Origin: Squalus acanthias | Taxonomy: Eukaryota | Direction: 5' to 3' | Assembly (NCBI GenBank): GCA_030390025.1 | Contig: JASTWF010000338.1 | Location: forward strand, 248,001-312,000 | DNA: 64,000 bases | Shown here: piece after piece, positions 11,378 to 48,300 of the stretch | Layout of the letters: each line of letters begins with the position of its first letter | Position numbering within the stretch: position 1 is the first letter of the stretch | The notes under the pieces: model-generated | What the model was told of the DNA's origin: nothing | Seen by the model: the letters and a program-made list of their open reading frames with translations, nothing else | Database searches by the model: none | Program-made: the position numbers and the translations under genes

Positions 11378-12304
11378 TGTAAGGGGTTTTTGTCTCGGGC
11401 TTATTTGTAGGTCAGCCAGTTATGTTTTCCTGCACTGTCCTGCCCGCTATGCGGTTGCGAATCGCTATCCCCTTTATTAGTTCTGAGCCCAGGACTTATC
11501 GAGCGGTGATAAGGACAAACGAACAGACCCGTGGATTGGTGCGAGGAAAACCAATGTTTATTTACAGAAGTAAAACTACAGAGAAACAGTATCATATGAA
11601 AACGGTTTTACACTTAGCATGGGAAGAGAACGGACACATCGAGGGAAAATCCTAAAATTACAGTTTTAGCAATATCCCCATTAATCCCCACCCTTATGCC
11701 TAACTAAAATTGTCTTGCGACAGCCAGAAGAAAGATAATGCTCACCGGTGAAATGGATGGAAAAACCTGGCCCTGTGCTCTGTTTCTGCCGTCGACACGT
11801 GGCGTTTCTGGTAGTCTTCTTTCTGGGCTGCTGGCAGACAGAGCGAACTGGGTCCAGGCAGAGAGAGCGAAAAATGGCTGGGTCTTCCCATTTATACCCC
11901 TCCTGGACGCCCTAATCTTCCCACCGATCAGCACATTTCTATTGTCTGATCTGGGCATGATGAATTTTAACAAAAGGTACTGGTCTCGGCCCATCATGCT
12001 AGATGGCCGGTAATGGTGTGATACCAGTTCTTCAACTACCACCCTATTGTTCGACAGGTTGGATGATTGTCCAGAACAGTTCTGTTGATGGGCCCAGCGC
12101 CGTCTCAATGTCCCCGCCGATTACTTGAGCAAACACCTTGAAAGCCTTATGCATAGACCTGATTGTATTGCATAAGGAAAGGTCCTGTCCTGTTGCAGAC
12201 ATCGGAATACACAAGCTGACACGAGGTCCGACCGCGGCCATTTTATGCCCTGGATTTTAAAACTCAGTCTGACCAGGGTTTCTTTATTAATAAGTCCAAC
12301 AACA
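11378..12304 (-). mobile_element. Probable solo LTR
   Basis: TGT...ACA termini. On the minus strand TATAAA (~11890) lies upstream of AATAAA-type signals (~11560, ~11475). No TSD found. Confidence 0.45.
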
Positions 12305-13564
12305 AACATCTTCGGGGGGCGGGGGGGGGGGGGAACACATGAAATTTTGCAAATCTTTTCAGGAGTCACCGATACTGAGTGAATGGGGTTGGGAGGGAGT
12401 CACCTGTACTCAGTGAATGGGGTTGGGAGGGAGTCAGCTATACCGAGTCAATGGGGTTGGGAGGGAGTCACCTATACTCAGTGAATGGGGTTGGGAGGGA
12501 GTCACCTATACTCAGGGAATGGGGTTGGGAGGGAGTCACCTATACTGAATGAATGGGGTTGGGAGGGAGTCACCTATACTGAGTCAATGGGGTTGGGAGG
12601 GAGTCACCTATACTGAATGAATGGGGTTGGGAGGGAGTCACCTATACTCAGGGAATGGGGTTGGGAGGGAGTCACCTATACTGAGTGAATGGTGTTGGGA
12701 GGGAGTCACCTATACTGAGTCAATGGGGTTGGGAGGGAGTCACCTATACTGAGTCAATGGGGTTGGGAGGGAGTCACCTATACTGAATGAATGGGGTTGG
12801 GAGGGAGTCACCTATACCGAGTGAATGGGTTTGGGAGGGAGTCACCTATACCGAGTGAATGGGGTGGGGAGGGAGTCACCTATACTCAGTAAATGGGGTA
12901 GGGAGGGAGTCACCTAAACCGAGTGAATGGAGTTCGGAGGGAGTCACCTTTACTCAGTGAATGCGGTTGGGAGGGAGTCACCTATACTGAGTGAATGGGG
13001 TTGGGAGGGAGTCACCTATACTCAGTGAATGGGGTTGGGAGGGAGTCACCTATACAGAGTGAATGTGGTTGGGAGGGAGTCACCTATACTGAGTGAATGG
13101 GGTTGGGAGGGAGTCACCTATACTGAGTGAATGGGGTTGGGAGGGAGTCACCTATACTGAGTGAATGGGTGGGAGGGAGTCACCTATATCTGAGTGAATG
13201 GGTTGGGAGGGAGTCACCTATACTGTGAAATGGGTGGGAGGGAGTCACCTATACTGATTGAATGGGGTTGGAGGGAGTCACCGATACCTGAGTGAATGGG
13301 GTGGAGGGAGTCACCTATACTGAGTGAATGGGGTTGGGAGGGAGTCACCTATACTCAGTGAATGGGTTTGGGAGGAGTCAACTATACTCGACTGAATGGG
13401 GTTGGGAGGGAGTCACCTATACCGAGTGAATGGGTTTGGAGGGAGTCACCTATACTGAGTGAATTGGGTTGGGAGGGAGTTACCTATACCGAGTGATTGG
13501 GGTTGGGAGGTAGTCACGTATACCGAGTGAATGGGAATGGGAGGGAGTCACCTATAGTGAGTGA

Positions 13565-13780
13565 CATGAATCTGTTATTCATGACTTATGAAATAATACT
13601 CAGTGGCCTGTGGGTAGCGCTGTCCAGGGAGAGTATAAATACTCGGGCACGGGCCCAGCTTGCGCAGGACATTCTTAACAGGAACCAGTGAAGGATACAA
13701 CTGGACCTCCATGTTGAAAAACAGTAGATTAAAGCTTTGCTTAACCCTTAGACCAAGTGCCGAGTAGTTTTCTTCCGTCG
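13565..13780 (+). mobile_element. 216-bp LTR-like insert within satellite (copy 1)
   Basis: Non-satellite sequence with TATAAATA and ATTAAA, flanked by GTGAGTGA direct repeats. Confidence 0.5.
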
Positions 13781-16700
13781 GTGAGTGAATGGGGTTGGGA
13801 TGGAGTCACCTATTCCGAGTCAATGGGGTTGGGAGGGAGTCACCTATTCCAAGTCAATGGGGATGGGAGAGAGTCACCTATTCCGAGTCAATGGGGTTGG
13901 GATGGAGTCACCTATTCCGAGTCAATGGGATTGAGAGGGAGTCACCTATTCCGAGTCAATGCGGTTGGGAGGGAGTCACCTATACCGAGTCAATGGGGTT
14001 GGGAGAGAGTCACCTATTCCGAGTCAATGGGGTTGAGAGGGAGTCACCTATTCCGAGTCAATGGGGTTGAGAGGGAGTCACCTATTCCGAGTCAATGGGG
14101 TTGAGAGGGAGACACCTATTCTGAGTCAATGGGGTTGGGAGGGAGTCACCTATTCCGAGTCAATGGGGTTGAGAGGGAGTCACCTATTCCGAGTCAATGG
14201 GGTTGGGAGGGAGTCACCTATTCCGAGTCAATGGGGTTGGGAGAGAGTCACCTATTCCGAGTCAATGGGGTTGGGAGAGAGTCACCAATTCTGAGTCAAT
14301 GGGGTTGGGAGAGAGTCACCTATTCCGACTCAATGGGGTTGAGAGGGAGACACCTATTCTGAGTCAATGGGGTTGGGAGGGAGTCACCTATTCCGAGTCA
14401 ATGGGGTTGGGAGGGAGTCACCTATTCAGAGTCAATGGGGTTGGGAGGGAGTCACCTATTCCGAATCAATGGGTTGGGAGGGAGTCACCTATTCCGAGTC
14501 AATGGGGTTGGGAGGGAGTCAACTATTCCGAGTCAATGGGGATGGGAGGGAGACAGCTATTCCGAGTCAATGGGGTTGGGAGGGAGTCACCGATACTGAG
14601 AGATTGGGGTTGGGAGGGAGTCACCTATACTGAGTGAATGGGGTTGGGATGGAGTCACCTATATCGAGTCAATGAGGTTGGGAGGGAGGCATCTGTACCA
14701 CGTGATAGAGGTTGGGAGGGAGTCACGTATACTGAGTGAATGGGGTTGGGAGGGAGTCACCTATACTGAGTGAAGGAGGTTGGGAGGGAGTCACCTATAC
14801 TCAGGGAATGGGGTTGGGAGGGAGTCACCTATACTGAGTGAATGGGGTTGGGAGGGAGTCACTATACCGAGTCAATGGGGTTGGGATGGAGTCACCGACA
14901 CTGAGTGAATGGGGTTAGGAGGCAGTCACCTATACCGAGTGAATGGGGTTGGGAGGGAGTCACCTGTACTGAGTGAATGGGGTTGGGAGAGAGTCACCGA
15001 TACTGAGCGATTGGGGTTGGGAGGGAGTCACCTGTACCACGTGATTGAGATAGCGAGGGAGTCACCTATACTGAGTGAATGGGGTTGGGAGGGAGTCACC
15101 TATACTGAGTGAATGTGGTTGGGAGGGAGTCACCTATATTGAATGAATGGGGTTGGGAAGGAGTCACCTATTCCGAGTCAATGGGGTTGGGAGGGAGACA
15201 GCTATTCCGAGTCAATGGGGTTGAGAGGGAGACACCTATTCTGAGTCAATGGGGTTGGGAGGGATTCACCTATTCCGAGCCAATGGGGTTGGGAGGGAGT
15301 CACCTATTCCGAGTCAATGGGGTTGGGAGGGAGTCACCTATTCCGAGTGAATGGGGTTGGGAGGGAGTCACCTATATCGAGTCAATGAGGTTGGGAGGGA
15401 GGCACCTGTACCACGTGATAGAGGTTGGGAGGGAGTCACGTATACTGAGTGAATGGGGTTGGGAGGGAGTCACCTATACTGAGTGAAGGAGGTTGGGAGG
15501 GAGTCACCTATACTCAGGGAATGGGGTTGGGAGGGAGTCACCTATACTGAGTGAATGTGGTTGGGAGGGAGTCACCTATACTGAATGAATGGGGTTGGGA
15601 GGGAGTCACCTATACCGATTGAATGGGGTTGGGAGGGAGTCACCAATACTGAGTGAATGGTGTTGGGAGGGAGTCACCTATACTCAGGGAATGGGGTTGT
15701 GAGGGCGTCACCTATACTGAGTAAATGTGGTTGGGAGGGAGTCACCTATACTGAATGAATGGGGTTGGGAGGGAGTCACCTATACCGATTGAATGGGGTT
15801 GGGAGGGAGTCACCAATACTGAATGAATGGGGTTGGGAGGGAGTCACCTATACTCAGTGAATGGGTTTGGGAGGGAGTCAACTATACTCATGAATGGGGT
15901 TGGGAGGGAGTCGCCTATACCAAGTGAATGTGGTTTGGACGGGAGTCACGTATACTGAGTGAATGGAGTTGGGATGGAGTCACCTATGCTGAGTGAATGG
16001 GGTTGGGAGGGAGTCACCTATACTCACTGAATGGGGTTGGGATGGAGTCAACTATATCGAGTCAATGAGGTAGGGAGGGAGTCACCTGTACCACGTGATT
16101 GAGTTTGGGAGGGATTCACCTATACTGAGTGAATGCGGTTGGGAGGGAGTCACCTATACTCAGTAAATTGGGTTGGGAGGGAGTCACCTATACCGAGTGA
16201 ATGTGGTTTGGACGGGAGTCACGTATACCGAGTGAATGGGGTTGGGAGGGAGTCACCGATACCGAGTGAATGGGGTTGGGAGGCAGTCACCTATACCGAG
16301 TGAATGGGGTTGGGAGGGAGTCACCTATACTGAGTGAATGTGGTTGGGAGGGAGTCACCATTACTGAATGAATGGGGTTGAGAGGGAGTCACCTATACCG
16401 ATTGAATGGGGTTGGGAGGGAATCACCAATACTGAGTGAATGGGGTTGGGAGGGAGTCACCTATACTCAGGGAATGTGGTTGTGAGGGAGTCACCTATAC
16501 TGAGTGAATGTGGTTGGGAGGGAGTCACCTATACTGAATGAATGGGGTTGGGAGGGAGTCACCTATACCGATTGAATGGGGTTGGGAGGGAGTCACCAAT
16601 ACTGAGTGAATGGGGTTGGGAGGGAGTCACCTATACTCAGTAAATTGGGTTGGGAGGGAGTCACCTATACTCAGGGAATGGGGTTGTGAGGGAGTCACCT

Positions 16701-19051
16701 ATACTGAGTGAATGTGGTTTGGACGGGAGTCACATATACTGAGGGAATGGGTTTGGGAGGGAGTCACCTTTGCTCAGTGAAAGGGGTTGCGATGGAGTCA
16801 CCTCTATCGAGTCAATGAGGTTGGGAGGGAGGCACCTGTACCACGTGATAGAGGTTGGGAGGGAGTCACATATACTGAGGGAATGGGGTTTGGAGGGAGT
16901 CACCTATACTGATTGAAGGAGGTTGGGAGGGAGTCACCTATACTCAGGGAATGGGGTTGGGAGGGAGTCACCTATACTGAGTGAATGGGGTTGGGAGGGA
17001 GTCACCGATACCGAGTCAATGGGGTTGGGAGGGAGTCACCTATACTCAGTAAATTGGGTTGTGAGGGAGTCACCTATACCAAGTGAATGTGGTTTGGACG
17101 GGAGTCACGTATACTGAGTGAATGGGGGAGGGAGTCACATATACCGAGTGAATGGGGTTGGGAGGGAGTCACCTATACTCAGTAAATTGGGTTGTGAGGG
17201 AGTCACCTATACCAAGTGAATGTGGTTTGGACGGGAGTCACGTATACTGAGTGAATGGGGTTGGGAGGGAGTCACCTATACTGAGTGAATGTGGTTGGGA
17301 GGGAGTCACCCATACTGAATGAATGGGGTTGGGAGGGAGTCACCTATACCGAGTGAATGGGGTTGGGAGGGAGTCACCAATACTGAGTGAATGGTGTTGG
17401 GAGGGAGTCACCTATACTGAGTGAATGGGGTTGGGAGGGAGTCACCTATACTGAGTGAATGGGGGTGGGATGGAGTCACCTATACTAAGTAAATTGGGTT
17501 GGGAGGGAGTCACCTATACTGAGTGAATTGGGTTGGGAGGGAGTCACCTATACTGAGTGAATGAGGTTGGGAGGGAGTCACCTATACTGAGTGAATCGGG
17601 TTCGGAGGGAGTCACCTATACCGAGTGAATCGGGTTGGGAGGGAGTCACCTATACCGAGTGAATGGTGGTGGGATGGAGTCACCTATACTAAGTGAATTG
17701 GGTTTGGATGGAGTCACATATACCGAATGAATGAGGTTGCGTGGGAGTCACCTATACTGAGTGAATGGGGTTGGGAGGGAGTCACCTATACTCAGTAAGT
17801 GGGGTTGGGAGGGAGTCACCGATACTGAGCGATTGGGGTTGGGAGGGAGTCACCTATACTGAGTGAATGGGGTTTGGGTGGAGTCACCTATATCGAGTCA
17901 ATGAGGTGGGGAGGGAGTCACCTGTACCACGTGATTGAGGTTGGGAGGGAGTCACCTATACTGAGTGAATGGGGTTGGGAGGGAGTCACCTATACTGAGT
18001 CAATGGGGTTGGGAGGGAGTCACCTATACTCAGGGAATGGGGTTGGGAGGGAGTCACCTATACTGAATGAATGGGGTTGGGAGGGAGTCACCTATACTGA
18101 GTCAATGGGGTTGGGAGGGAGTCACCTATACTGAATGAATGGGGTTGGGAGGGAGTCACCTATACTCAGGGAATGGGGTTGGGAGGGAGTCACCTATACT
18201 GAGTCAATGGTGTTGGGAGGGAGTCACCTATACTGAGTCAATGGGGTTGGGAGGGAGTCACCTATACTGAGTCAATGGGGTTGGGAGGGAGTCACCTATA
18301 CTGAATGAATGGGGTTGGGAGGGAGTCACCTATACCGAGTGAATAGGTTTGGGAGGGAGTCACCTATACCGAGTGAATGGGGTGGGGAGGGAGTCACCTA
18401 TACTCAGTAAATGGGGTAGGGAGGGAGTCACCTAAACCGAGTGAATGGAGTTCGGAGGGAGTCACCTATACTGAGTGAATGGGGTTGGGAGGGAGTCACC
18501 TATACTGAGTGAATGGGGTTGAGAGGGAGTCACCTATACCGAGTGAATTGGGTTGGGAGGGAGTCACCTATACTGAGTGAATGGGGTTGGGAGGGAGTCA
18601 CCTATACCGAGTGAATGTGGTTGGGAGGGAGTCACCTATACTGAGTGAATGGGTTGGGAGGGAGTCACCTATACTCAGGAATGGGTTGGGAGGGAGTCAC
18701 CTATACTGAGTGAATGGGGTTGGGAGGGAGTCACCTATACTCAGTGAATGGGTTGGGAGGGAGTCACCTATACTGAGTGAATGGGGTTGGGAGGGAGTCA
18801 CCTATACTGAGTGAATGGGTTGGGAGGGAGTCACCTATACTGAGTGAATGGGGTTGGGAGGGAGTCACCTATACTGAGTGAATGGGGTTGGGAGGGAGTC
18901 ACCTATACTGAGTGAATGGGGTTGGGAGGGAGTCACCTATACTGAGTGAATTGGGTTGGGAGGGAGTTACCTATACCGAGTGATTGGGGTTGGGAGGTAG
19001 TCACGTATACCGAGTGAATGGGAATGGGAGGGAGTCACCTATAGTGAGTGA

Positions 19052-19268
19052 CATGAATCTGTTATTCATGACTTATGAAATAATACACAGTGGCCTGTGG
19101 GTAGCGCTGTCCAGGGAGAGTATAAATACTCGGGCACGGGCCCAGCTTGCGCAGGACATTCTTAACAGGAACCAGTGAAGGATACAACTGGACCTCCATG
19201 TTTGAAAAACAGTTGATTAAAGCTTTGCTTAACCCTAAGACCAAGTGCCGAGTAGTTTTCTTCCGTCG
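19052..19268 (+). mobile_element. LTR-like insert within satellite (copy 2)
   Basis: Near-identical to 13565-13780, with the same flanking unit variants, 5487 bp downstream. Confidence 0.5.
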
Positions 19269-22200
19269 GTGAGTGAATGGGGTTGGGATGGAGTCACTTA
19301 TTCCGAGTCAATGGGGTTGGGAGGGAGTCACCTATTCCAAGTCAATGGGGATGGGAGAGAGTCACCTATTCCGAGTCAATGGGGTTGGGATGGAGTCACC
19401 TATTCCGAGTCAATGGGATTGAGAGGGAGTCACCTATTCCGAGTCAATGCGGTTGAGAGGGAGACACCTATTCTGAGTCAATGGGGTTTGGAGGGAGTCA
19501 CCTATTCCGAGTCAATGGGGTTGAGAGGGAGTCACCTATTCCGAGTCAATGGGGTTGGGTGGGAGTCACCTATTCTGAGTCAATGGGGTTGGGAGAGAGT
19601 CACCTATTCCGAGTCAATGGGGTTGGGAGGGAGTCACCGATACTGAGAGATTGGGGTTGGGAGGGAGTCACCTATACTGAGTGAATGGGGTTGGGATGGA
19701 GTCACCTATATCGAGTCAATGAGGTTGGGAGGGAGGCACCTGTACCACGTGATAGAGGTTGGGAGGGAGTCACGTATACTGAGTGAATGGGGTTGGGAGG
19801 GAGTCACCTATACTGAGTGAAGGAGGTTGGGAGGGAGTCACCTATACTCAGGGAATGGGGTTGGGAGGGAGTCACCTATACTGAGTGAATGGGGTTGGGA
19901 GGGAGTCACCTATACCGAGTCAATGGGGTTGGGATGGAGTCACCTATACCGAGTGAATGGGGTTGGGAGGGAGTCACCTGTACTGAGTGAATGGGGTTGG
20001 GAGGGAGTCACTATACTGAATGAATGGGGTTGGGAGGGAGTCACCGATACCGATGAATGGGGTTGGAGGGAGTCACCAATACTAAGTGAATGGGGTTTGG
20101 AGGGAGTCACCTATACTCAGTGAATGGTTGGGAGGGAGTCACTATACTCGAGTGAACGGGTTGGGGAGGGAGTCACCTATACTGAGTGAATGGGTTTGGA
20201 GGGAGTCACCTATCTCAGGTGAATGGGGTTGGGAGGGAGTCACCTATACCTGAGTGAATGTGGTTGGAGGGAGTCACCTATACTGAGTGAATGCGGTTGG
20301 GAGGGAGTCACCTATACTGACTGAATGGGGTTGGGAGGGAGTCACCTATACTGAGTGAATGGGGTTGGGAGGGAGTCACCTATACTCAGTAAATTGGGTT
20401 GGAGGGAGTCACCTATACCAAGTGAATGTGGTTTGGACGGGAGTCACGTATACTGAGTGAATGGGGTTGGGAGGGAGTCACCTATACTGAGTGAATGGGG
20501 TTGGGAGGGAGTCACCAATACTGAGTGAATGGTGTTGGGAGGGAGTCACCTATACTCAGGGAATGGGGTTGTGAGGGAGTCACCTATACTGAGTAAATGT
20601 GGTTGGGAGGGAGTCACCTATACTGAATGAATGGGGTTGGGAGGGAGTCACCTATACCGATTGAATGGGGTTGGGAGGGAGTCACCAATACTGAGTGAAT
20701 GGGGTTGGGAGGGAGTCACCTATACTCAGTGAATGGGTTTGGGAGGGAGTCAACTATACTCACTGAATGGGGTTGGGAGGGAGTCACCTATACCAAGTGA
20801 ATGTGGTTTGGACGGGAGTCACGTATACTGAGTGAATGGAGTTGGGATGGAGTCACCTATGCTGAGTGAATGGGGTTGGGAGGGAGTCACCTATACTCAC
20901 TGAATGGGGTTGGGATGGAGTCAACTATATCGAGTCAATGAGGTAGGGAGGGAGTCACCTGTACCACGTGATTGAGTTTGGGAGGGATTCACCTATACTG
21001 AGTGAATGCGGTTGGGAGGGAGTCACCTATACTCAGTAAATTGGGTTGGGAGGGAGTCACCTATACCGAGTGAATGTGGTTTGGACGGGAGTCACGTATA
21101 CTGAGTGAATGGGGTTGGGAGGGAGTCACCGATACCGAGTGAATGGGGTTGGGAGGCAGTCACCTATACCGAGTGAATGGGGTTGGGAGGGAGTCACCTA
21201 TACTGAGTGAATGTGGTTGGGAGGGAGTCACCCATACTGAATGAATGGGGTTGAGAGGGAGTCACCTATACCGATTGAATGGGGTTGGGAGGGAGTCACC
21301 AATACTGAGTGAATGGGGTTGGGAGGGAGTCACCTATACTCAGGGAATGTGGTTGTGAGGGAGTCACCTATACTGAGTGAATGTGGTTGGGAGGGAGTCA
21401 CCTATACTGAATGAATGGGGTTGGGAGGGAGTCACCTATACCGATTGAATGGGGTTGGGAGGGAGTCACCAATACTGAGTGAATGGGGTTGGGAGGGAGT
21501 CACCTATACTCAGTAAATTGGGTTGGGAGGGAGTCACCTATACTCAGGGAATGGGGTTGTGAGGGAGTCACCTATACTGAGTGAATGGGGTTGGGAGGGA
21601 GTCACCTATACTCAGTAAATTGGGTTGGGAGGGAGTCACCTATACCAAGTGAATGTGGTTTGGACGGGAGTCACGTATACTGAGTCAATGGGGTTGGGAG
21701 GGAGTCACCTATACTGAGTGAATGTGGTTTGGACGGGAGTCACATATACTGAGGGAATGGGTTTGGGAGGGAGTCACCTTTGCTCAGTGAAAGGGGTTGC
21801 GATGGAGTCACCTATATCGAGTCAATGAGGTTGGGAGGGAGGCACCTGTACCACGTGATAGAGGTTGGGAGGGAGTCACATATACTGAGGGAATGGGGTT
21901 GGGAGGGAGTCACCTATACTGAGTGAAGGAGGTTGGGAGGGAGTCACCTATACTCAGGGAATGGGGTTGGGAGGGAGTCACCTATACTGAGTGAATGGGG
22001 TTGGGAGGGAGTCACCGATACCGAGTCAATGGGGTTGGGAGGGAGTCACCTATACTCAGTAAATTGGGTTGTGAGGGAGTCAACTATACCAAGTGAATGT
22101 GGTTTGGACGGGAGTCACGTATACTGAGTGAATGGGGGAGGGAGTCACATATACCGAGTGAATGGGGTTGGGAGGGAGTCACCTATACTCAGTAAATTGG

Positions 22201-24486
22201 GTTGTGAGGGAGTCACCTATACCAAGTGAATGTGGTTTGGACGGGAGTCACGTATACTGAGTGAATGGGGTTGGGAGGGAGTCACCTATACTGAGTGAAT
22301 GTGGTTGGGAGGGAGTCACCCATACTGAATGAATGGGGTTGGGAGGGAGTCACCAATACTGAGTGAATGGTGTTGGGAGGGAGTCACCAATACTGAGTAA
22401 ATGTGGTTGGGAGGGAGTCACCTATACTGAATGAATGGGGTTGGGAAAGAGTCACCTATACCGATTGAATGGGGTTGGGAGGGAGTCACCAATACTGAGT
22501 GAATGGGGATGGGAGGGAGTCACCTATACTCAGTGAATGGGTTTGGGAGGGAGTCAACTATACTCAGTAAATTGGGTTGGGAGGGAGTCACCTATACCGA
22601 GTGAATGTGGTTTGGACGGCAGTCACGTATACTGAGTGAATGGGTTTGGGAGGGAGTCACCTTTGCTCAGTGAATGGGGTTGGGAGGGAGTCACCAATAT
22701 CGAGTCAATGAGGTTGGGAGGGAGGCACCTGTACCACGTGATAGAGGTTGGGAGGGAGTCACCTATACTGAGTGAATGTGGTTTAGACGGGAGTCACGTA
22801 TACTGAGTGAATGGGGTTGGGATGGAGTCACCTATACCGAGTGAATGGGGTTGGGAGGGAGTCACCTATACCGATTGAATGGGGTTTGGAGGGAGTCACC
22901 AATACTGAGTGAATGGGGTTGAGAGGGAGTCACCTATACTCAGGGAATGGGGTTGTGAGGGAGTCACCTATACTGAGTAAATGTGGTTGGGAGGGAGTCA
23001 CCTATACTGAATGAATGGGGTTGGGAGGGAGTCACCTATACCGATTGAATGGGGTTGGGAGGGAGTCACCAATACTGAGTGAATGGAGTTGGGATGGAGT
23101 CACCTATACTGAGTGAATGGGTTGGGAGGGAGTCACCTATACTCAGTGAATTGGGTTGGGAGGGAGTCACCTATACCAAGTGAATGTGGTTTGGACGGGA
23201 GTCACGTATACTGAGTGAATGGGGAAGGGAGGTTGTCACCGATACTGAGTGAATGGGGTTGGGATGGAGTCACCTATACTCACTGAATGGGGTTGGGATG
23301 GAGTCAACTATATCGAGTCAATGAGGTAGGGAGGGAGTCACCTGTACCACGTGATTGAGTTTCGGAGGGATTCACATATACTGAGTGAATGCGGTTGGGA
23401 GGGAGTCACCTATACTCAGTAAATTGGGTTGGGAGGGAGTCACCTATACCGAGTGAATGTGGTTTGGACGGGAGTCACGTATACTGAGTGAATGGGGTTG
23501 GGAGGGAGTCACCGATACCGAGTGAATGGGGTTGGGAGGCAGTCACCTATACCGAGTGAATGGGGTTGGGAGGGAGTCACCTATACTGAGTGAATGTGGT
23601 TGGGAGGGAGTCACCCATACTGAATGAATGGGGTTGAGAGGGAGTCACCTATACCGATTGAATGGGGTTGGGAGGGAGTCACCAATACTGAGTGAATGGG
23701 GTTGGGAGGGAGTCACCTATACTCAGGGAATGTGGTTGTGAGGGAGTCACCTATACTGAGTGAATGTGGTTGGGAGGGAGTCACCTATACTGAATGAATG
23801 GGGTTGGGAGGGAGTCACCTATACCGATTGAATGGGGTTGGGAGGGAGTCACCAATACTGAGTGAATGGGGTTGGGAGGGAGTCACCTATACTCAGTAAA
23901 TTGGGTTGGGAGGGAGTCACCTATACTCAGGGAATGGGGTTGTGAGGGAGTCACCTATACTGAGTGAATGGGGTTGGGAGGGAGTCACTTATACTCAGTA
24001 AATTGGGTTGGGAGGGAGTCACCTATACCAAGTGAATGTGGTTTGGACGGGAGTCACGTATACTGAGTCAATGGGGTTGGGAGGGAGTCACCTATACTGA
24101 GTGAATGTGGTTTGGACGGGAGTCACATATACTGAGGGAATGGGTTTGGGAGGGAGACGCCTTTGCTCAGTGAAAGGGGTTGCGATGGAGTCACCTATAT
24201 CGAGTCAATGAGGTTGGGAGGGAGGCACCTGTACCACGTGATAGAGGTTGGGAGGGAGTCACATATACTGAGGGAATGGGGTTGGGAGGGAGTCACCTAT
24301 ACTGAGTGAAGGAGGTTGGGAGGGAGTCACCTATACTCAGGGAATGGGGTTGGGAGGGAGTCACCTATACTGAGTGAATGGGGTTGGGAGGGAGTCACCT
24401 ATACTCAGTAAATTGGGTTGTGAGGGAGTCACCTATACCAAGTGAATGTGGTTTGGACGGGAGTCACGTATACTGAGTGAATGGGG

Positions 24487-25274: not shown

Positions 25275-26240
25275 CAGGGAACTAGATGTAATATCTCCAA
25301 GTTTGCAGATGACTCAAAGTTGGGTGGGCGTGTGTGTTGTGTGGAGGATGCAGAGAAACTCCAGTATGATTTGGACAAGTTGGGTGATTGGGCAGGTGCA
25401 TGGCAGATGCAGTATAATGTGGATAAATGCGAGGTTATCCACTTTGGTGGCAAAAACAGGAAGGCAGATTATTATCTGAATGGCAATAGATTGGGAAAAG
25501 GGGAAGTGCAACGAGACCTGGGGGTCCTTGTGCACCAGTCGCTGAAGGTAAGCATGCAGGTGCAGCATGCGGTTAAGAAGGCAAATGGAATATTGGCCTT
25601 CATAGCGAGAGGATTCGAGTACAGGGGCAAGGATGTCTTGCTGCAGTTGTACAGGGCCTTGGTGAGACCACACCTTGAGTATTGTGTGCAGTTTTGGTCG
25701 CCTTATCTGAGGAAGGACGCTCTTGCCATGGAGGGAGTGCAGCGAAGATTCAGCAGACTGATGCCTGGGATGGCAGGAATGACGTATGAAGAGAGATTGG
25801 GACGATTGGGCTTGTATTCGCTAGAGTTTAGAAGAATGAGAGGGGATCTCATTGAAACTTATAAAATTCTAACAGGACTAGACAGACTAGATGCAGGAAG
25901 GATGTTCCCGATGGCGGGGGAGTCCAGAAACAGGGGTCACAGTCTAAGGATAAGGGGTAGGCTATTTAGGACTGAGAGGAGGAGGAATTTCTTCACCCAG
26001 AGAGTGGTGAACCTGTGGAATTCTCTACCACAGAAGGCAGTAGAGGCCAATTCATTAAATATATTCAAGAAGGAGATAGATATATTTCGTAAGGCTAAAG
26101 GGATCAAGGGATATGGGGAGAAAGCAGGGACAGGGTACTGAATTTGGATGATCCGCCATGATCTCATTGAATGGCGGAGCAGGCTCGAGGGGCCGAATGG
26201 CCTACTCCTGCTCCTATCTTCTATGTTTCTATGTTTCTAT
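25275..26240 (+). mobile_element. CR1 LINE, 5'-truncated, young (ORF2 C-terminus uninterrupted)
   Basis: 292-aa ORF SKFADDSKLGG...IKGYGEKAGTGY with a (TTCTATGT)n tail. Confidence 0.95.
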
Positions 26241-27722
26241 CCCCATGATAGAGTGATTGGAACGCCCACAATCTACTGGGACTGGGTAGGCTTCAGTGGC
26301 TAGGCGGAGCTGACACAGGCTCAGTGAATTGCTGAACGGGTGGAGGGCTGCGAGGTGTTTGTTGCTAATCCAGGAGGGGACTAAACCTTGTTTTAAATCC
26401 TCCAGGTTGCTGCAGCCCTCGCCCAGCAACCATGCCCCGTGTAGCACACACACCTCATTCTGTGCAGCCTGATCCAAAGCATTCCTATCCTCCCGTATGA
26501 GTGCATTTACTGTTTTAGCGTGTCTCTCTAGCTCAGCAATGATCTCCTTTAAATGGACCGTCATAGCTTGGTCCTCGTGTAGCTTTGAGCCTACCGCTTT
26601 GTTTTCTTCCATTAGGATCTTTCGTAGTTGGGTTTTTAGACCATTTATCTGTGTTTGTAGTTCTATATCGTCCAGGCTATTTATTACAGAGGATCCTGTA
26701 TTGTAGGTAGTGAAAATATCGTTCCAGGTCCCCCTTCTTTGTCTCCCTGCGCCCATAGTGTGCTCTGCGTGTAGTTTGTACAGCTCTGCTTTGTCTATGT
26801 TGGCAAAGTCAAATTCGTAGAATTTCCTAAACATTTCTTTCAGCAGGGCCTGGTGTAGCTGTTCTGTCTCCTTAGGACACCATTCAGGTAAGTGTACCTC
26901 GGTAAGGTTTAAAATAACTGAAGCTGCTGCATAGTGTACCCCCTGGTAGAGTACCTTTTCGGTCGGCACTAGCACTAGCCCATTCTCTGGTCCCTTGGTG
27001 GTGGAAGGACACCTCTCTATCACTGTCTGTGATGTCGTGGTCGTGGGCAGGGGCTTTCGGGGGCGTGCTACTAGTTTGGTGACGTTGACTGGAATCGGGG
27101 AGTGTGGGAGCGCGCACGCATGCAGGCTAGAGTCCCACCCCATCCCCTTCCCGGTGTCTTGTCATTGTCTGGAGAAGATGATGGATATGCCTGTGGGGCA
27201 GGCTCTCTCTGATCCCCACATACAGACATAGATTCCCTGTTCCGACTCCCACCACTTATTCCAACACACACCCACTCCCCCTTGGGTCCCTGTGATCGTC
27301 CAGTAGGTGTCGTTCCCCAGTCGTTCCCAGTCAGCTGTACGGTCCCCTATGTCCCTGCTCAGCTTCCTGAGCCACCACCACCTATCCAGGGGAATCCGTC
27401 CCTTGCAGGTGAGACACACACGTTTCCCCTCAGTGACGCTGACCCTTGTAGCAACGACCTGTACCCTGGGGCACGAGATGGAGGCCTCCCCGTAGGTGAA
27501 CCCGGTCTGGCTGGAGTATTTTGTGGAGTTCGACCCCAGCCACCCTGGCCAGCTTCCCTCATGGAAGTAAATAGCGAGCTCCTCCACACCCGGTTTGCCA
27601 CCCCCAGCGGTAACGATCGGCGCTCTCTCTCCCGAGCACCCATAAATGTGGGAGTCCTCCACGTCACCTCGGTCACCAATGCTCACCCCTACCAGGGCGA
27701 GCAGGAGCAGAACCCTTGTCAT
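26241..27722 (-). pseudogene. env: env: signal peptide + Ig-like domain + class I fusion-like protein; one in-frame TGA (27162-27164), C-terminus truncated by CR1
   Basis: MTRVLLLLALVGVSIG; VSVTEGKRVCLTC...WWW...GIYVC; furin site RQRR|G followed by heptad IELQTQINGLKTQLRKIL. ORFs 27162-27749 and 26229-27143 are in the same frame. Confidence 0.75.
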
Positions 27723-27735
27723 GCCGATTTCCTCT

Positions 27736-27760
27736 CTGTAGGGACACACAAAACAGATAG
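27736..27760 (-). promoter_or_regulatory. Putative env splice acceptor
   Basis: Minus strand CTATCTGTTTTGTGTGTCCCTACAG|AGAGGAAATCGGC-ATG, with the acceptor 13 nt before the env ATG. Confidence 0.6.
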
Positions 27761-27924
27761 CCCTGTCCCGAGAAGGTTCTCTGGCTTGACAGGTGATCGA
27801 GTCTCGAAAATTTACTTACTTAAGTAAAAATAATTCACTAAAACTAAAACTACCAAAAACTGTAAAACACACCTAAAATACCTAAAAACTCTGTACATCT
27901 GCCGCCCGTCTCCGGACGGCCAGG

Positions 27925-30900
27925 CTAATTCCTGTATGGCCTCTGCCTTGGGCAGCCTCTCAGCAGCCTGTACGCCTGGGCGTAAGGTGGCCTGTACCGC
28001 AGGACCCGGAGAGTCCTTCTTAAAACGGCTGAGGGTTTCCCTGAATCCCTGATAATCCGGGGAGTGTCCCCTCCTGTGCTACAGCACACTACCCCCTTTG
28101 GTGTGGCTGCTGAGTCCCTGTCCTGTCCTGTGGGTTCCCCGCAGCCTGAGGCTGCAGGCTGGGGATCCCTCTTCTTAGAATGACCCCTGACTTTGGGTAT
28201 TCTCTTTCGGGTTGTGGCCCTTGCTGGGCTGAAGCACTGAAACTCTGGTGACCACGGTCGTTTTGGCTGTGGTGTGCGAGGAGACCTTCTCAGGACTCTG
28301 GCTACCGGGGGTGCGTCCGAGTCCCACATAATTGGTGGGGTAGCCCCTCCGGTGACACAAGCCACTGCCCCTACCGGTGCGGTCTGTGAGTCTGCCACAG
28401 CTGCTGGCTGAGGCTCTCTAACTTTAGGGCGGTTCGCCCTTGCTGGCTGTTCCCCTTTGGATTTAAACAGCTTACACTGCTTAATGTGGAACCACTTGGT
28501 GCGGCGGGGCATCATTATGGCGTAGACCATGGGGCTTGCCTTGTCGACAATGCTGTACGGCCCCATGTACAGTGGTTCAAAACTCCCTACCCGGGCAAAA
28601 TTCCTAACCATGACCTGATCCCCTATCTCCCACTCGTGGTGCTTGCGGGGTTCTAGCAGCAGTCGGTTACTCCGATGCTGTTTTCCCATGTTGCTAGCAG
28701 CCTGCCAGTGAACCTGTTTAAGGTGTTCAAACAGATTCCTGACAAAGCTGTCCCAGTTGACCTCACTGAGCTGACCCTCCGTGAGCAATGGGGCTAGCAC
28801 ATGGGTGGGGGTCCGCATAATCCTACCAGTCATAAGCTGGTGTGGGGAATACCCCGTGCTTTTTGACTGGCTGGCTCGGATCCCCATTAGGACCAACGGT
28901 AAGACTTCTACCCACTTCTTGGGTGAGTCTCCCGTTTCCTTCCGTAGCCTTTCCTTAATGGTACGGTTTAAACGCTCCACAGGACCCGATGACTGCGGGT
29001 TGTGGGCGACGTGCCAGTTCCCTTCAATGCCGAGTACGCTGAGGGTCTCTTGCATGACCTGCCCGGTAAAATGACTCCCCTGGTCGGACTCCACATACTG
29101 CGGTAGACCCCATCATGAGAACACTTCCCTGACCAGGATCCTAGCCATACCCAATGCGGTAGCAGTACGGCATGGGAACGCTTCCACCCACTTTGAGAAC
29201 ACATCCACCAGGACTAGGCAGTACTTAAAGCCTCCCTGGGCGGTGGGTAGGGGCCCAATGTAATCGACCTGGATCGACTGCCATGGTCCCTCTACCCTCC
29301 TGATGTGTCCCATAGATACCTTCCTTTTCTGGGGGTCTGGGTTGTTAGCAGCACACACCAAACAGCCGGCACAAAACTCGCGGACCTCTTCCCTGAGTCC
29401 TGGCCACCATCCTGTCTGTTCCACCCGTTGCCAGGTGGTCTCAGGTCCGGGATGCCCCGCTCCTGGACCCTCATGGGCCAGTTGGAGGAATTCCCTTCGG
29501 TGCTGCTGCGGCACCATCCACTGCTCCCCCCTGAACAGCATGCCTTCCTTAACGGTGATGGCTGCTGTGCCGTACGGGCCCTCTATCTTTTCCCCTTTTA
29601 CCAGGGTGTTCAGGACGGCCTTGAGGACGGTATCCTGGGCTTGGGCCTGCTTTAAGTCCGGGGCCAAGGCTACCCACTGGGTGCCTCCCTTGCTCCGGAT
29701 TGCGGCTACCGGACCTGTTTGGTACGCATCCCAGAATACCCCTTCCCTGGCCCCCTGTTTGGCCAGCTTGTCTGCCTTACAGTTACTCTCCCACCTGGGC
29801 TCTGTTTTTGAATGGGCCTTGACCTTATGGATATAGACCTTCCCTTCCTCCTCCACGGCCGCCATGATTTTCTCCAACAGGGGCTTTATGGTGAGGGGTC
29901 TCCCATCAGCGGAGGTATATCCGCGACGGGACCAGATGGCCAGGTACTCCGTACACGAATTGCATGTGAACATGCTGTCCGAGCAAATCGTGTATGGGGT
30001 AGGGAACTTCTCGGGGTGTGTAACCACGTACACTACCGCAGACAGTTCAGCCTGCTGGGCGCTCATGGTGCTGGGGAGTTTAATTGCCAGGGCAATGCCT
30101 GCCTCCTGGTCATAAACTCCACACCCGGTGAGTCGCTCGCCAGCAGATACTGTGCTCGAACCGTCCACATAGATTTCGCGGCGTGTGGGGTGTATCCCGG
30201 CCCGAAAACCTATGTTGACTTCCCATACCCCTTCAATGGAACACCGGTGGGCAGTCCCTGGGTAGATCATGTTGGCTGCGAGCTTCGGCTCGCAGAGACC
30301 TTTCACCCTTAGGTCCATCTGGGAGAGAAGCAGGGTCCAGCGAGCAATGCGGGCACTGCTCACTGTCCAGACTTTGATTCTCCCATCTAGGAGCATCTGC
30401 GTGGGCGTGTGATGGGTGAGCAGGGTGATGGGAGATGTTCCTGTGAAGATCAATGATCTTTTCACAGCCCAGTGAGTGGCAAGGAGGTGCCTCTCACAGT
30501 TGGAATAGCCCTTCTCCACATCGGTGAGTATCCTGGAGGAGTAAACCACTGGTCTCAGCCGGTCGTGCCTCTCTTGGAGCAGCACGGCACTGAGACTGTC
30601 CCCGCTGGCTGCCACCTCCAGGAAAAACTCCCTCTCCCCATCAATGGCCCCTAGAGCCGGCGCGGTCTGCAGATCTTTCTTTAACTTGAGAAATGCTGCC
30701 TCGCAACCCTCGTCCCAGATCCACTCCACACCCTTGTGTAGGAGTCGGAGCAGAGGGGCTGCGGTGGCTGCGTAATCCTCAATGAAATCTCTGCAGTACC
30801 CGGTTAACCCTAGAAAGGATCTCACTCCTGTGACTGTGTTGGGGGCTGGTAACTCCTGCACTGCTTCCCTCCTAGCTTTGTCGATGGCCCGTTCCCCAGC

Positions 30901-32123
30901 GCGCACAGTTAGTCCGAGGAATTTTACTTCCTGTTGGCCGATCTGTACCTTCTTTGGGTTCACTTTGAAGCCTTCTTGCCGGAGCAGCTCCAGCAGTTCA
31001 GCCAGTAGTGGACCGTGTTCCTCTCCCTCATCGGTGAACAGGAGTAGGTCATCCACATACTGTACCAACTGCCGGGGCCGGCTGAAGCCCTTCAAACAAT
31101 TCGCCATGCATTGGTGAAAAATGCTAGGGCTGTTGTGGAAGCCCTGAGGTAGGCAGTTCCAGGTGTACTGTTGGCCTTTAAAAGTGAAGGCGAACTTGTA
31201 CTGGTCCTCTCTTCATAAAGGGATGGACCAAAACCCGTTGGAAATGTTCAGCACTGTGAAAGTGGTCGCGGATGCTGGGATACTTCCGATGAGGTCGGTG
31301 ATGGCTGCTACCGTGGGTGCACAGGCGGGGATGTTACGGTTGAGTGCCCGATAGTCCACTGTGGCCCTCCAGGAGTTGTCCGGTTTTCTAACCGGCCACA
31401 GTGGAGAGTTTACGTGGGTGGCTATCGGTCTCAATACCCCCTGTGTTACTAAAGAAGCCATGGCCTTTTCCATGTCTGCTTCCGCCTCCCTGGGGAAATT
31501 GTATTGCTTCTGTGGTCGGGTCATGGGATCCCCACTGACACTAACCTCAACCCCGTTTACCCTCCCACAATCGTGCTTGTGAGTGGCAAATGCTGCGAGA
31601 TGTGCTTGCACAAATGCCTGGTATGCCATCGGAGTGTTACTGACCATTTGTTCGAGGTCATAACCTTCCTTTGGTTTCAGGGTGCACAAGGTCCCCTTGC
31701 CCTGTTTCCCTGGGATGACTGCCACTTCACTTTCTCTGCCAGTACATGCTCCCCACTGACAATGGTTCCTAAGATCCACTAGAATCCTGTGGCCTGTGAT
31801 AAAGTCGGCCCCCAGGATCCCCGTCCCTTCCCGCTCCCATTTCATCAGGACACAGGTCCACTTGGTGTGGAGTGCTCCTAAATGAATGGACAGCGGGATG
31901 GAGAACGAGCCAGCCTGCTCATTACCTGTAAACTCCACTAATCTGTACGGGAGCCGTTAGACAGAGGTGAGGCGGCGGGGTTGGCTGAATAGACTATGGT
32001 GCTGGAAGCTCCAGTATCTAACAGATAAGTCCCTTTCACCTTCTCCACCTCCATCCTAACGAGTGTTCTCTTCCATGCGTCGTACTCCAGGGGACACAGG
32101 TAGACAGGCTGCGCTGGCTCTAG
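27925..32123 (-). pseudogene. pol: pro-pol (protease, RT, tether, RNase H, integrase); one frameshift (~31950) and two in-frame TGA (31213, 29113)
   Basis: LLDTGASST; ILGADF; NSPLWPVRKP..W.ATVDYR; LPQGF; YVDD; IYVDGSS/SAQQAEL/SDS/KVKAH; HHCC; VDYIGP; SDQG; VERLNRTIK; GPY. Confidence 0.9.
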
Positions 32124-32888
32124 TCATAAGTCTGCGTTAGGGGGGGCAGATGGGGTTAAAGCAGCAGTGGCGGTGGCTACTTTCCCCGGGCCGTTTACTA
32201 GAGCTCGGATCGCAGCCATGACCGAGTCTAATGTGGGGGAAGAGGTCAGTGCTTCGGTGCTTGGGGCAGGAGCTGGAGAGTTCTTCCCTATGTTATCCTT
32301 CCACAGATTCCTGCAGTCTTTTCTCCAATGCCAACTCTTCCCGCACCAGAAGCAGTTACGCTTCGTGTCGGAAGGGTTACCCCCTTCCTGGTGCCACTCT
32401 TTCTTTTTGCTAGGCCTTATTTCATGTACCTTTCCCTTAGGTGGGTGCTCTTCTGTCCCTCTACCATTCCGGTAAGCCAGGGTCAGTTGTCTGACCACTG
32501 TCTCCTCGGTGACCCGGGGGTCTTTCGGGTCAAACCACAGCTCAGCCTTGGCCCTGATCCGTGGCAAGCTGTTTGCCACTAGGCTTCGGAGCCAGTGGGC
32601 CAGCTCATCCTGATTCAGGTGAGCCCGGTCGAGAACTCCAATACAGGCACTCCTGTACACAGGCCACAGTCGGTCTGCGAAAGCCTGTGGGGTCTCCCCT
32701 ACAAGCTGGGTTGTCTTCTCCACCCGGGAGAAGGGACTACCATCATTCATTCCCATGGCCTCCAGAACTCCCTCCCGGATAGTGGCATATCCACCCTGAC
32801 CTCTTTTACTCTCTGCGGAGAGGGACTGGTAGATTTTGCTATCTAGGAAGAACAGGAGCATCTTTGCCATCTCGGCATCATCGCAATC
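32124..32888 (-). pseudogene. gag: gag C-terminal portion with zinc knuckle, 5' part lost at a CR1 junction
   Basis: QLVGETPQAFADRL (MHR-like) and CFWCGKSWHWRKDC, directly upstream of protease. Confidence 0.85.
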
Positions 32889-34089
32889 GTGGTGTATTTG
32901 GACTTTCAGAAGGCTTTCGATAAGGTCCCGCATAAGAGATTAGCGTGCAAAGTTAAAGCACATGGGATTGGTGGGGGTAAGGTACTGACTTGGATAGAAA
33001 ACTGGTTGGCAGACAGGAAGCAAAGAGTTGGAATAAAGGGGTCTTTTTCCGAGTGGCAGGCAGTGACTAGTGGGGTACCGCAGGGATCGGTGCTAGGACC
33101 CCAGCTATTCACAATATATATTAATGATCTAGACGAGGGAACTAGATGTAATATCTCCAAGTTTGCAGACAACACAAAGCTAGGTGGGCGTATGTGCTGT
33201 GAGGAGGTTGCAGAGAAACTGCATTATGATTTGGACAGGTTGGGTGATTGGGCAGATGCATGGCAGATGCATGGATAAATGCGAGGATATCCACTTTGGT
33301 GGCAAAAACAGGAAGGCACATTATCTGAACGGCAATAGATTGGGAAAAGGGGAAGTGTAACGAGACCTGCGTGTCCTTGTGCACCAGTCGCTGAAGGTAA
33401 GCATGCAGGTGCAGCAGGCGGTTAAGAAGGCAAATGGTATGTTGGCCTTCATAGCGAGAGGATTAGAGTACAGGAGCAAGGATGTCTTGCTGCAGTTGTA
33501 CAGGGCCTTGGTGAGACCATACCTTGAGTATTGTGTGCAGTTTTGGTCGCCTTATCTGAGGAAGGATGCTCTTGCCATGGAGGGAGTGCAGCGAAGATTC
33601 ACCAGACTGATACCTGGGATGGCAGGAATGACGTATGAAGAGAGATTGGGTCGATTAGGCTTATATTCGCTAGAGTATAGAAGAATGAGAGGGGATCTCA
33701 TTGAAACTTATAAAATTCTAACAGGTCCAGACAGACTAGATGCAGGAAGGCTGTTCCCGATTGCGGGGGAGTCCAGAACCAAGGGTCACAGTCTAAGGAT
33801 AAGGGGTAAGCCATTTAGGACTGAGAGGAGGAGGAATTTCTTCACCCAGAGAGTGGTGAACATGTGGAATACTCTACCACAGAAGGTAGTTGAGGCCAAT
33901 TCATTAAATATCTTCAAGAAGGAGTTAGATATATTTCTTAAGGCTAAAGGGATCAAGGGATATGGGGAGAAAGCAGGGACAGGGTACTGAATTTGGATGA
34001 TCAGCCATGATCACATTGAATGGCGGAGCAGGCTCGAGGGGCCGAATGGCCTACTCCTGCTCCTATCTTCTATGTTTCTATGTTTCTAT
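32889..34089 (+). mobile_element. CR1 LINE, same subfamily as 25275-26240
   Basis: VYLDFQKAFDKVPH...GVPQGSVLGP, and a nearly identical 3' end and tail. Confidence 0.95.
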
Positions 34090-45378: not shown

Positions 45379-48300
45379 TGTTGAGGCTGCCGCGAAACAC
45401 GAATTAAGACTGAATCCATGTGTGGAAAACAAAGGCTTTTTAATACAACTGCATGGTCAAAGATGGCTGAAACAAACTGCTCCCAGAATTCTCTGGAAAA
45501 TCCTGAGGCCCCGCCCACTCCTTTTCTCCTGCCTTAAAGGCAAGGTGCCTTAAAGGCAAGGTGCCCGATTTATTGTCCACGGACGGAAGAGTGGATTGCG
45601 CCCGTTTAGGTGGCGATCCGCCACACAGCTCCCCCCAGAATCTGCTTAGGAGGTGTGGACGAGACGGTGCGGCGGTCTGATGGGCCGGCCGGAGCGGTTC
45701 TTGTAGGATGCCGGTGGACGTGGAACGGCCGGGCGTGGAGCAGCCGGGTGAACCGGCTTGAGGGCAGGTCGGCCGCGTGGAGGTGGACGAATTACATGGA
45801 CCTGCTCACCGGGCTCCGAGTGTGCTGGCTTGAGTTGGTCAACCGACACTTTTTCGGTCCTGTCGCTCACTTGCAGGGTGAAAAATTTGTCCCCAGCCTG
45901 TAGCACCTTGTAGGGCCCGTCGTACGGGGGTTGAAGGGGTCCGCGGTGGGCGTCGTGCCGGACGAAAACGAACCGTGCCTGGTGCAGGCTTAGTGGGACG
46001 TGTGAGGTGGATTCGCCGTGTCAGGCAATGGGCACCGGGGCGAACTGCAGCGCCGGTGAGGCGAAGTCGTGGCGTTGCTGGTCGGCTGACCAGGGTGTCG
46101 TGGCGGTGGGCAGGAACTCGCCGGGTACGCGCAGCGGCTGACCGTACACGAGCTCTGCTGCCGATGCGTGGAGGTCTTCTTTAACCGCGGTGCGCAGGCC
46201 GAGGAGGACCCACGGAAGTCGGTTGGTCCAGGCGCCGTCCTGGAGGCTGGCTCGAAGAGATGCCTTCAAGGATCTGTGGAACCGCTCACACAGTCCGTTG
46301 GCTTGGGGGTGGTATGCTGTGGTGCGGTGAATGGTCATCCCGAGATTGCGTGCGACTGCGGTCCAGAGTTCAGAGGTAAATTGCGGACCTCTGTCCGACG
46401 TCATGTCGGAGGGGACGCCGAACCGTGCGACCCAGGTGCTGACGAAGGCTCTGGCGATGTCGGTGGTGGTGGTAGAGGTCAACAAGTGCGTGTGGCCTTG
46501 CGACGGCGGCAGGGGCCCGACGATGTCCACGTGGATGTGGTCGAATCTACGCGAGGGGACGGTAAACTCCTCGAGGGGTGCTTTCGTGTGTTGCTGTACC
46601 TTGGCCCGTTGGCAGGCTAGGCAGGAGTTGGCCCAAGTACGCACATCCTTGCGAAGGCCGCGCCAGACAAAGCGGTTGGCTGCCAATTTGATGGATGCGC
46701 GGGCGCCGGGGTGGGATAGGTTGTGGAGAATCTCGAATACCCGGCGGCGCCAGGACGCTGGGACGACGGGCCGAGGTTGACATAGGGATATGTCGCACTT
46801 GACCATGACTGCGGTCGGGCCACAGGCGACGTCGGCCAGGCGTAGCCCTGGTAGGTTGGTGGGTGCGGAGAGCAGATCAGGGTCGGTGATCTGGTCTGCT
46901 GCGAGTTGAGCGTAGTCGACGCCAGGTGTGCGGCGTTGATTTGCGGCGGGAGAGGCAGTCGGCTAACACATTGTCTCGGCCAGAGACGTGTTGGATGTCC
47001 GTGGTGAACTCGGACACTGCCGCGAGCTGGCGCTGCTGCCTGGTGGACCAGGGGTCGGTTGTCTTTGCCATTGCGAATGTCAGGGGCTTGTGGTCGACAA
47101 ACGCAGTGAAGGGGTGGCCCTCCAGCAAAAAACGAAAATGGCGGACCGCCAGGAACAGCGCGAGGAGCTCGCGGTCGAAGGTGCTGTACTTGACCTCCGG
47201 GGGGCGTAGTTGGCGGCTGAAGAAGGCAAGTGGTTGCCAGGCGCCATCGACCCACTGCTCATACACGGCGCCGACCGCGTGGTCGGAGGCGTCCGTGGTG
47301 AGCGCTACCCTGGCATTGGGCCGTGGGTGCGCGAGCAGGGTGGCGTTGGCGAGCGCGGTCTTGGTGGAGTCGAAGGCGGCGGACGCGTCTGCCGTCCATT
47401 CGACCGCCATCTTGCCGCCCCTGCCCCGGAGGGCTTCATACAGGGGCCTCATGAGGGACGCCGCTTTGGGGATGCAGCGGTTATAGAAATTCACCATCCC
47501 GAGGAACTCCTGGAGGCCTTTGATGGTGGTGGGGCAGGGAAATTGTTGGACGGCCTGCACCTTGGTGGGCAGGGGAATGGCCCCAGCATGGGTGATGTGG
47601 TGGCCGAGGAAGTCGATCTTGTCCAGGCCAAACTGGCATTTGGCTGGGCTGAGGATGAGCCCGTGGTCGCTGAGGCGCCCGAACAGGATGCGAAGGTGTT
47701 CGAGGTGCTCCTGCTTGGAGGAACTGGCTACCAGGATGTCGTCCAGGTAGACGAACAGGAACTTCAGGTCCCGAAGGACCGAGTCCATGAGCCGTTGGAA
47801 TGCCTGGGCCGCGTTTTTGAGGCCGAAGGGCATCCGCAGGAACTCGAACAGGCCGAAGGGGGTGATTACGGCCATCTTGGGGACGTCCGCAGGGTGGACG
47901 CGACTTGGTGGTAGCCGCGCACCAGGTCGACCTTGGAAAAGACTGAGCGGCCGGCCAGTCTAGCCGAGAAGTCCTGAATGTGCGGCACGGGGTACCGATC
48001 AGGGGTGGTGGCGTCATTGAGGCGGCGGTAATCCCCGCAGGGGCGCCAACCCCCGCTTGGTTTGGGGGCGATGTGGAGTGGGGAGGCCCAGGGACTGTTG
48101 GAGCGGCGGATGATGCCGAGCTGTTCCATGGTGGCAAACTCGGTCCGCGTGATCTCCAGTTTGGCTGGGTCCAGCCTGCGGGCGTGGGCGTACACTGGGG
48201 GGCCTTTGGTGGGGATGAAGTGTTCCACCCCGTGTTTGCCGGCCTCCGCGGAGAAGGTCAGATTGGTAAGGGCCGGGAATTCGGCCAGGAGTGCCGAGTA

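Follow-up and report, generated by a model that had tools for sequence, protein, structure and literature searches.

A candidate UGA-CUAG readthrough signal at the gag-protease junction of a snakehead-retrovirus-like endogenous retrovirus from Squalus acanthias

The minus strand of a 64,000-nucleotide stretch of Squalus acanthias DNA (contig JASTWF010000338.1, positions 248,001 to 312,000; referred to here as the window and numbered from its first letter) carries an endogenous retrovirus (ERV) in which the gag and protease coding regions lie in one frame with a TGA at 32126-32124 between them. This arrangement raises the question of whether the TGA is damage in a decayed provirus or the inherited end of gag and, if it is the latter, how the downstream protease and polymerase are reached. 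Here and below, statements about published work refer to the accessible parts of each source.

An in-frame TGA between gag and protease

The minus strand at the gag-protease junction reads GCA GAC TTA TGA CTA GAG CCA. The four bases 3' of the stop, CTAG at 32120-32123, give it the context of the type II readthrough motif, which is UGA followed by CUA or CGG (PMC3159437, PMC13517186). Behind the stop, 35 sense codons lead in the same frame to the protease DTG motif (GAT-ACT-GGA); the first base of this motif is 32018, and the distance from there to the T of the TGA is 108 nt. The original prediction had placed a UGA-CUAG stop 35 codons in frame ahead of this motif and had named UGA-CUAG as a known readthrough context; the minus-strand sequence bears out the first statement, and the published motif agrees with the second. 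CTAG follows 6 of the 2756 TGA trinucleotides in the whole window, and CTA-G comes directly 3' of 15 of the 2163 in-frame positions of the element; by hand arithmetic, the chance that at least one of the four in-frame TGAs of the element would have this context is about 3%.

The element extends over 32891-26232 in the order 3' gag, protease, RT, tether RNase H, second RNase H, integrase and an env-like frame, which is the Retroviridae order of gag-pro-RT-tether-RNase H-integrase-env with a weak env assignment. The remaining gag (32127-32891) comprises a capsid-like region, a single CCHC zinc knuckle (32313-32354) and a 62-residue tail; its 5' part is missing, with a CR1-type LINE piece in its place and LINE-like ORFs on the plus strand from 32847. 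An N-terminal protease segment at 31960-32123, with the DTG at 32018-32010, matches Pfam RVP at E=0.039, below the cut-off, and the protease tail, RT, tether RNase H, RNase H and integrase follow at 27928-31956. Self-BLAST found no LTR pair, and both ends of the element are cut by LINE-type repeats.

The env-like ORF (26232-27788), whose 3' end is cut by a repeat tail, gave weak domain matches. An Ig-like match at about 27470-27291 (Pfam Ig_3, E=0.018, below the cut-off) precedes a helical stretch that may be F-type, an arrangement that here sits on an SnRV-like pol. Atlas feature matches of this ORF to class I fusion protein clusters are weak, at 0.89-0.90, with that to the Fusion_gly cluster at 0.89 and of low recognition; a Pfam search gave no match to PF00523, the env piece had no sequence match in the PDB, and its single-sequence AlphaFold model is poor (pLDDT 36.7). 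The env of the elephant-shark relative CmiERV scaffold 2 looks gamma-type by eye (PMC4422223), unlike that of the window, and an env swap is possible. A frog gene model, P0037, has by eye an Ig V-type-looking domain at its C-terminus, after integrase; BLAST gave no match between this C-terminus and the Ig-like piece of the window.

By Pol identity, gene models of a frog (P0037, 41%) and the coelacanth (P0038, 40%) come closest to the element. In a quick tree built from 43 RT rows, from which SnRV, foamy virus, CmiERV and published lokiretrovirus RTs are absent and in which the group labels, including 'Loki-like' for P0039, were assigned by eye, the window, P0037 and P0038 stand beside gamma/epsilon-like rows (SH-aLRT 99) and P0039 falls outside. 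We dropped a strict lokiretrovirus identity for the element, as its RT lies inside the retrovirus branch and away from P0039 in this tree. The RT shares long motifs by eye with CmiERV scaffold 2, of lineage I, which has been placed with snakehead retrovirus (SnRV) (Han 2015, PMC4422223), and on account of these motifs we call the element SnRV-like. We assign it with moderate confidence to the SnRV-like ERVs, clade Huo in the naming of PMC6001957. A named catshark protein, P0010, is among its Gag relatives; no related loci were found among the viral contigs or metagenome contigs searched.

This copy of the ERV is dead. As had been predicted, three further TGAs interrupt its frames, at 31215-31213 and 29115-29113 in pol and at 27164-27162 in the env-like ORF, and in-frame TAA or TAG codons number zero across the 2171 codons of the element. 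A frameshift near 31953-31960, absent from the original prediction, breaks the protease after the DTG. These three TGAs, together with a CpG observed/expected ratio of 0.50 in this copy, favor an explanation in which the junction TGA is itself a decay mutation, perhaps a recurrent CpG change, in a naturally fused gag-pol, with CTAG behind it by chance; the roughly 3% estimate given above for such a context argues the other way.

Other retroelement remains lie elsewhere in the window. A short protease relic of a different element, at 7259-7440 on the plus strand between LINE pieces, had been put forward as weak support for a stop at a similar distance from the DTG. Its TGA is 110 nt from the DTG and out of frame, at the boundary between the relic and a LINE-like piece, and we discarded it as evidence on the junction; the DTG frame of the relic is open from about 7222, and a stop stands directly after the DTG. 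With tblastn, degraded traces of RT, RNase H and integrase from further LTR elements came to light at 46096-48117 (minus), 9882-10367 (plus) and 2163-2324 (minus). The window also holds a satellite array of about 12 kb with a 34-bp period and a strong G skew (12200-24000), and an inverted repeat whose 351-nt arms match perfectly across a 51-nt spacer (6100-6852), arising either from a very recent inversion-duplication or from misassembly.

Gag ends and junctions in related sequences

The ends of related Gag proteins provide a first view of whether the junction TGA is decay. A profile made from the related protein P0001 and the Gag-X-protease segment of the window matched 36 proteins, of which five combine a Gag match with a single knuckle; the remaining 31, either multi-knuckle proteins or fragments, fall outside the count. 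Gag ends 59-68 residues past the knuckle in four of these five and 39 residues past it in the fifth, compared with 62 in the window. P0001 is an unbroken Gag of 619 residues, 55% identical to the window over 32891-32136, and its end lies no more than two residues from the gag stop seen here; P0002, P0157 and P0158, from contigs of 13.1, 36.4 and 5.0 kb, share a common end residue. The ends compared here are those of protein records, which do not show stop codons, and three of the five come from short contigs, with those of P0001, P0028 and P0032 measuring 1.6-3.1 kb. A search for Gags of near length gave no match among 1176 candidates.

None of the 36 profile matches carries a protease D[TS]G motif. 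The lack of a fused relative among them, and the common end point of intact Gag frames of 619-653 residues, speak against the decay of a fused gag-pol. In the coelacanth gene model P0038, no stop separates a piece of gag from protease, which may reflect either a genuine fusion or an artefact of the model. As a fused form, P0038 would favor either decay in the window's copy or a mixed family, with a leaky stop in some lineages and a sense codon in others, as in alphaviruses, so that the stop would be optional; as a gene model, it may splice across a stop.

Public contigs provide a second view of the junction. Contigs from 4 of the 21 listed runs, representing four organisms and four studies, were aligned to 31150-32420 (1271 bases) at 80% likeness; no RNA run was among those listed as carrying the sequence. 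Loose ends occur at 32127 in all four runs, where contigs diverge exactly behind this base, the one 5' of the TGA (3, 2, 4 and 43 contigs in X1, X10, X11 and X12, respectively), and, among the matches listed, at 32092-32094 in three of the four. Depth peaks in the bin 32096-32138 in every run. Translated by hand, the loose contig parts give three further gag tails that run unbroken and in frame to the stop; one of these tails resembles the end of P0001. Contig depth and loose ends thus mark an island at 32092-32127 (minus strand), composed of the stop and the first 11 or so protease codons, that is common to divergent subfamilies. Conservation of the junction in these contigs is read from clip positions and the absence of a variant row, not from printed letters. 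The T of the TGA is probably kept, since an alignment would not be expected to run a single base beyond a mismatch.

No variant at 32120-32126 appears among the best 40 of 338 variant rows. The rows listed all reach about 93% or more of the depth in at least one run, so that a smaller variant share at the junction is possible, and a minority variant beyond the best 40 would favor decay. The divergence of contigs one base 5' of the T in all four runs counts against it. The other lesions of the window's copy behave differently across runs: at the RT stop (31215-31213), another reading accounts for 82%, 93% and 98% of the depth in X10, X11 and X12 but for only 8% in X1, and contigs of X10, X11 and X12 carry an extra base near 31953-31960, so the frameshift is not common to them. 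In X1 the RT stop seems to be present in most of the depth, possibly through the spread of a defective lineage in the organism concerned.

Taken together, the sequence, the ends of related Gags and the contig junctions lead us to regard the TGA at 32126-32124 as very probably the genuine gag stop. We consider it very improbable that it is a decay mutation in a fused gag-pol. The caveat to this effect in the original prediction loses most of its weight, given where Gag relatives end, where the contigs rejoin the window, and the similar junctions of lokiretroviruses described below.

Published junctions with an in-frame stop

In the supplement to the lokiretrovirus study (PMC7947760), gag ends by eye in TGA-CTA, in frame with pol, in 7 of 24 sequences: as TGA-CTAG in Loki-Ofa, -Cne, -Pyo and -Sau, and as TGA-CTAA in Loki-Bsp, -Dcl and -Lro, with TGA-CTAGGC at three of the seven junctions. 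Loki-Tfu reads TGN-CTAA with a later frameshift. Ten of the 24 are fused gag-pols by label alone, and Bpe looks fused; Loki-Aro, -Lch and -Ape have no gag in the supplement stretches examined, and Loki-Lca and -Rca were left unassigned in this tally. CTA is one of six leucine codons, and its presence behind TGA at all seven clear junctions suggests selection on the nucleotides. The accessible main text of this study contains no mention of readthrough, stop, termination or frameshift. The comparison of the junction across copies and species that had been proposed as a check has two parts, contigs that rejoin the window at the stop in four of four runs and TGA-CTA in 7 of 24 published lokiretroviruses, and both favor a conserved stop.

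The element resembles lokiretroviruses in its dual RNase H, the coiled-coil region in the Gag of its relatives, its possibly F-type env and the TGA-CTA itself. It differs from them in an RT that falls inside the retrovirus branch of the quick tree and in a Gag with a CCHC knuckle, none being seen in the Loki Gag ends examined. CmiERV scaffold 2 shares with it the long RT motifs, one CCHC knuckle and, by eye, an in-frame TGA-C at the gag-pro junction, 43 codons before a DSG; here the stop context is CATG, compared with CTAG in the window. The in-frame TGA is not discussed in the searched text of that report (PMC4422223).

Readthrough between gag and pro is established in gammaretroviruses, for example MoMLV with UAG and a pseudoknot, and has been predicted in WDSV, in SnRV (UAGGGC), SSSV (UGAAGA), ZFERV (UGACGA) and RMEV (UGAAGU) (PMC13517186). 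The original prediction had set the UGA of the window against the UAG and pseudoknot of gammaretroviruses; this description of gammaretroviruses stands, but three retroviruses of fish and frogs have already been recorded with UGA, followed by other bases. Like gamma- and epsilonretroviruses and these fish and frog viruses, the window has an in-frame stop between the Gag knuckle and the protease DTG. Unlike them it has UGA-CUA, which is in none of those listed, and shows no significant hairpin in a folding model that leaves pseudoknots aside. A gammaretroviral type III signal (UAG-G, 8-nt spacer, H-type pseudoknot) was rejected, as the stop is TGA-C. We count the difference between the UAGGGC of SnRV and the TGA-CTAG of the window against the readthrough reading.

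The stop and its +4 to +7 context are identical to those of known type II sites. Readthrough of UGA-CUA occurs in alphaviruses and triatoviruses, and UGA-CUAG is found in AQP4, MAPK10 and OPRK1 (PMC13517186, PMC3159437, 10.64898/2026.07.14.738498); readthrough has been measured in these cases, while the signal in the window is a candidate read from sequence. By itself, UGA-CUAG gives at least about 1.3% readthrough (PMC13517186). Alphaviruses add a 3' stem-loop that raises this 3- to 14-fold (PMC3159437), for which the window has no significant counterpart; such a stem-loop accompanies many type II sites but is a conditional feature of those with UGA-CUA.

Fungal LTR retrotransposons provide further cases. 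The fission-yeast Ty3/gypsy elements Tj1, Tosmo1-3 and Tcry1 have gag-TGA-pol in one frame with TGA-CT(A/G), and in Tj1 the in-frame stop, in its TGA-CT context, is essential for transposition (10.1101/2022.12.06.519325). Candida Tca2 also has gag-TGA-pol, but a reporter carrying just its junction showed no readthrough; a minor promoter and non-canonical bypass were described (PMC2194720). Both Tca2 and the Tj1 group lack an env and a second RNase H, unlike the element in the window.

Routes to Pol and implications

On the strength of sequence, frame, common Gag end and common junction, we consider the original interpretation of UGA-CUAG as a readthrough site likely to be correct, and TGA-CTAG a good candidate for a type II signal that would feed Gag-Pro-Pol. 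As at other type II sites, UGA is followed by CUA in frame with a downstream ORF, and stop and context appear conserved, in the family as judged from clip positions and Gag ends and in lokiretroviruses by eye. In the mechanism we propose, the TGA at 32126-32124 would be the inherited gag terminator of an SnRV-like (clade Huo) ERV family. Most ribosomes would stop at the UGA and release Gag, while a few percent would misread it with a near-cognate tRNA, favored by the CUAG, and continue in frame to produce Gag-Pro-Pol. We infer the occurrence and rate of readthrough, the inserted residue and a limited need for 3' structure.

Gag and pro share one frame and no slippery heptamer is present from -200 to +110 of the stop, and on these grounds we rejected -1 frameshifting. 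The stimulatory hairpin that had been suggested for the region 3' of the stop did not materialize: folding of this one decayed copy was not significant over 161 nt (z +0.79) or 215 nt (z -1.59), and the best of 35 folding windows reached z = -2.83.

Pol could also be made by some other route from a true gag end. In foamy viruses, Pol is translated from a spliced pol mRNA. Such an mRNA, an internal promoter, reinitiation or a non-canonical bypass like that of Tca2 might serve here, with CTAG kept for the protease codons or present by chance. The lack of a significant 3' structure is in keeping with such a route, as are the ATG three codons past the stop in Loki-Lro (PMC7947760 supplement) and the behavior of the Tca2 junction, with its minor promoter and its lack of readthrough in a reporter. 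The common island also encodes the protease N-terminus, and protein constraint could account for it. Set against these points, the sole in-frame ATG between stop and DTG in the window is codon 24, and a start there would remove most of the residues ahead of the DTG; the seven lokiretroviral TGA-CTA stops, with the selection on nucleotides that they suggest, also count against this alternative. We judge another route to Pol unlikely.

A mixed family, in which the stop is optional, seems slightly more doubtful still. The fused P0038, the presence of both fused (by label) and stop-bearing states among lokiretroviruses, and the description of alphaviruses with a nonsense-to-sense change are all consistent with it, but close Gag relatives include no fused form and P0038 has the weaknesses of a gene model. 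A mixed family would be compatible with readthrough in the lineages that retain the stop.

Readthrough at gag-pol and the UGA-CU context, in yeast retrotransposons, are already known; what appears new is only the CUA(G) context in vertebrate retroviruses. Searches of the open literature, a scope that excludes subscription papers, Repbase and bioRxiv supplements, turned up no retrovirus described with UGA-CUA between gag and pol. Readthrough is unmentioned or off-topic in the accessible parts of PMC9040795, PMC12440569, 10.1101/2023.10.26.564294, PMC12193657, PMC5512871 and PMC10435555, and those of a 2026 review of readthrough in animal viruses (PMC13517186) list no UGA-CUA retrovirus and give no match for 'loki'. 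A speculative extension is that UGA-CUA readthrough is ancestral, present at the base of the retrovirus tree and passed to lokiretroviruses and SnRV-like elements, older than the systems based on frameshifting or on UAG with a pseudoknot; lineages would then have switched back and forth between leaky stop and fused frame. We regard this as rather unlikely, and convergence on a motif of 6-7 nt is an easy alternative.

If confirmed, UGA-CUAG readthrough at this junction would constitute a third retroviral readthrough signal, one that uses the motif of alphaviruses and human genes and occurs in two deep lineages of aquatic retroviruses. These lineages would supply many natural variants for gauging the effect of the motif without RNA structure. 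For annotation, the junction stop would not be damage, and procedures that begin pol at the next methionine or filter out in-frame stops would misread these families.
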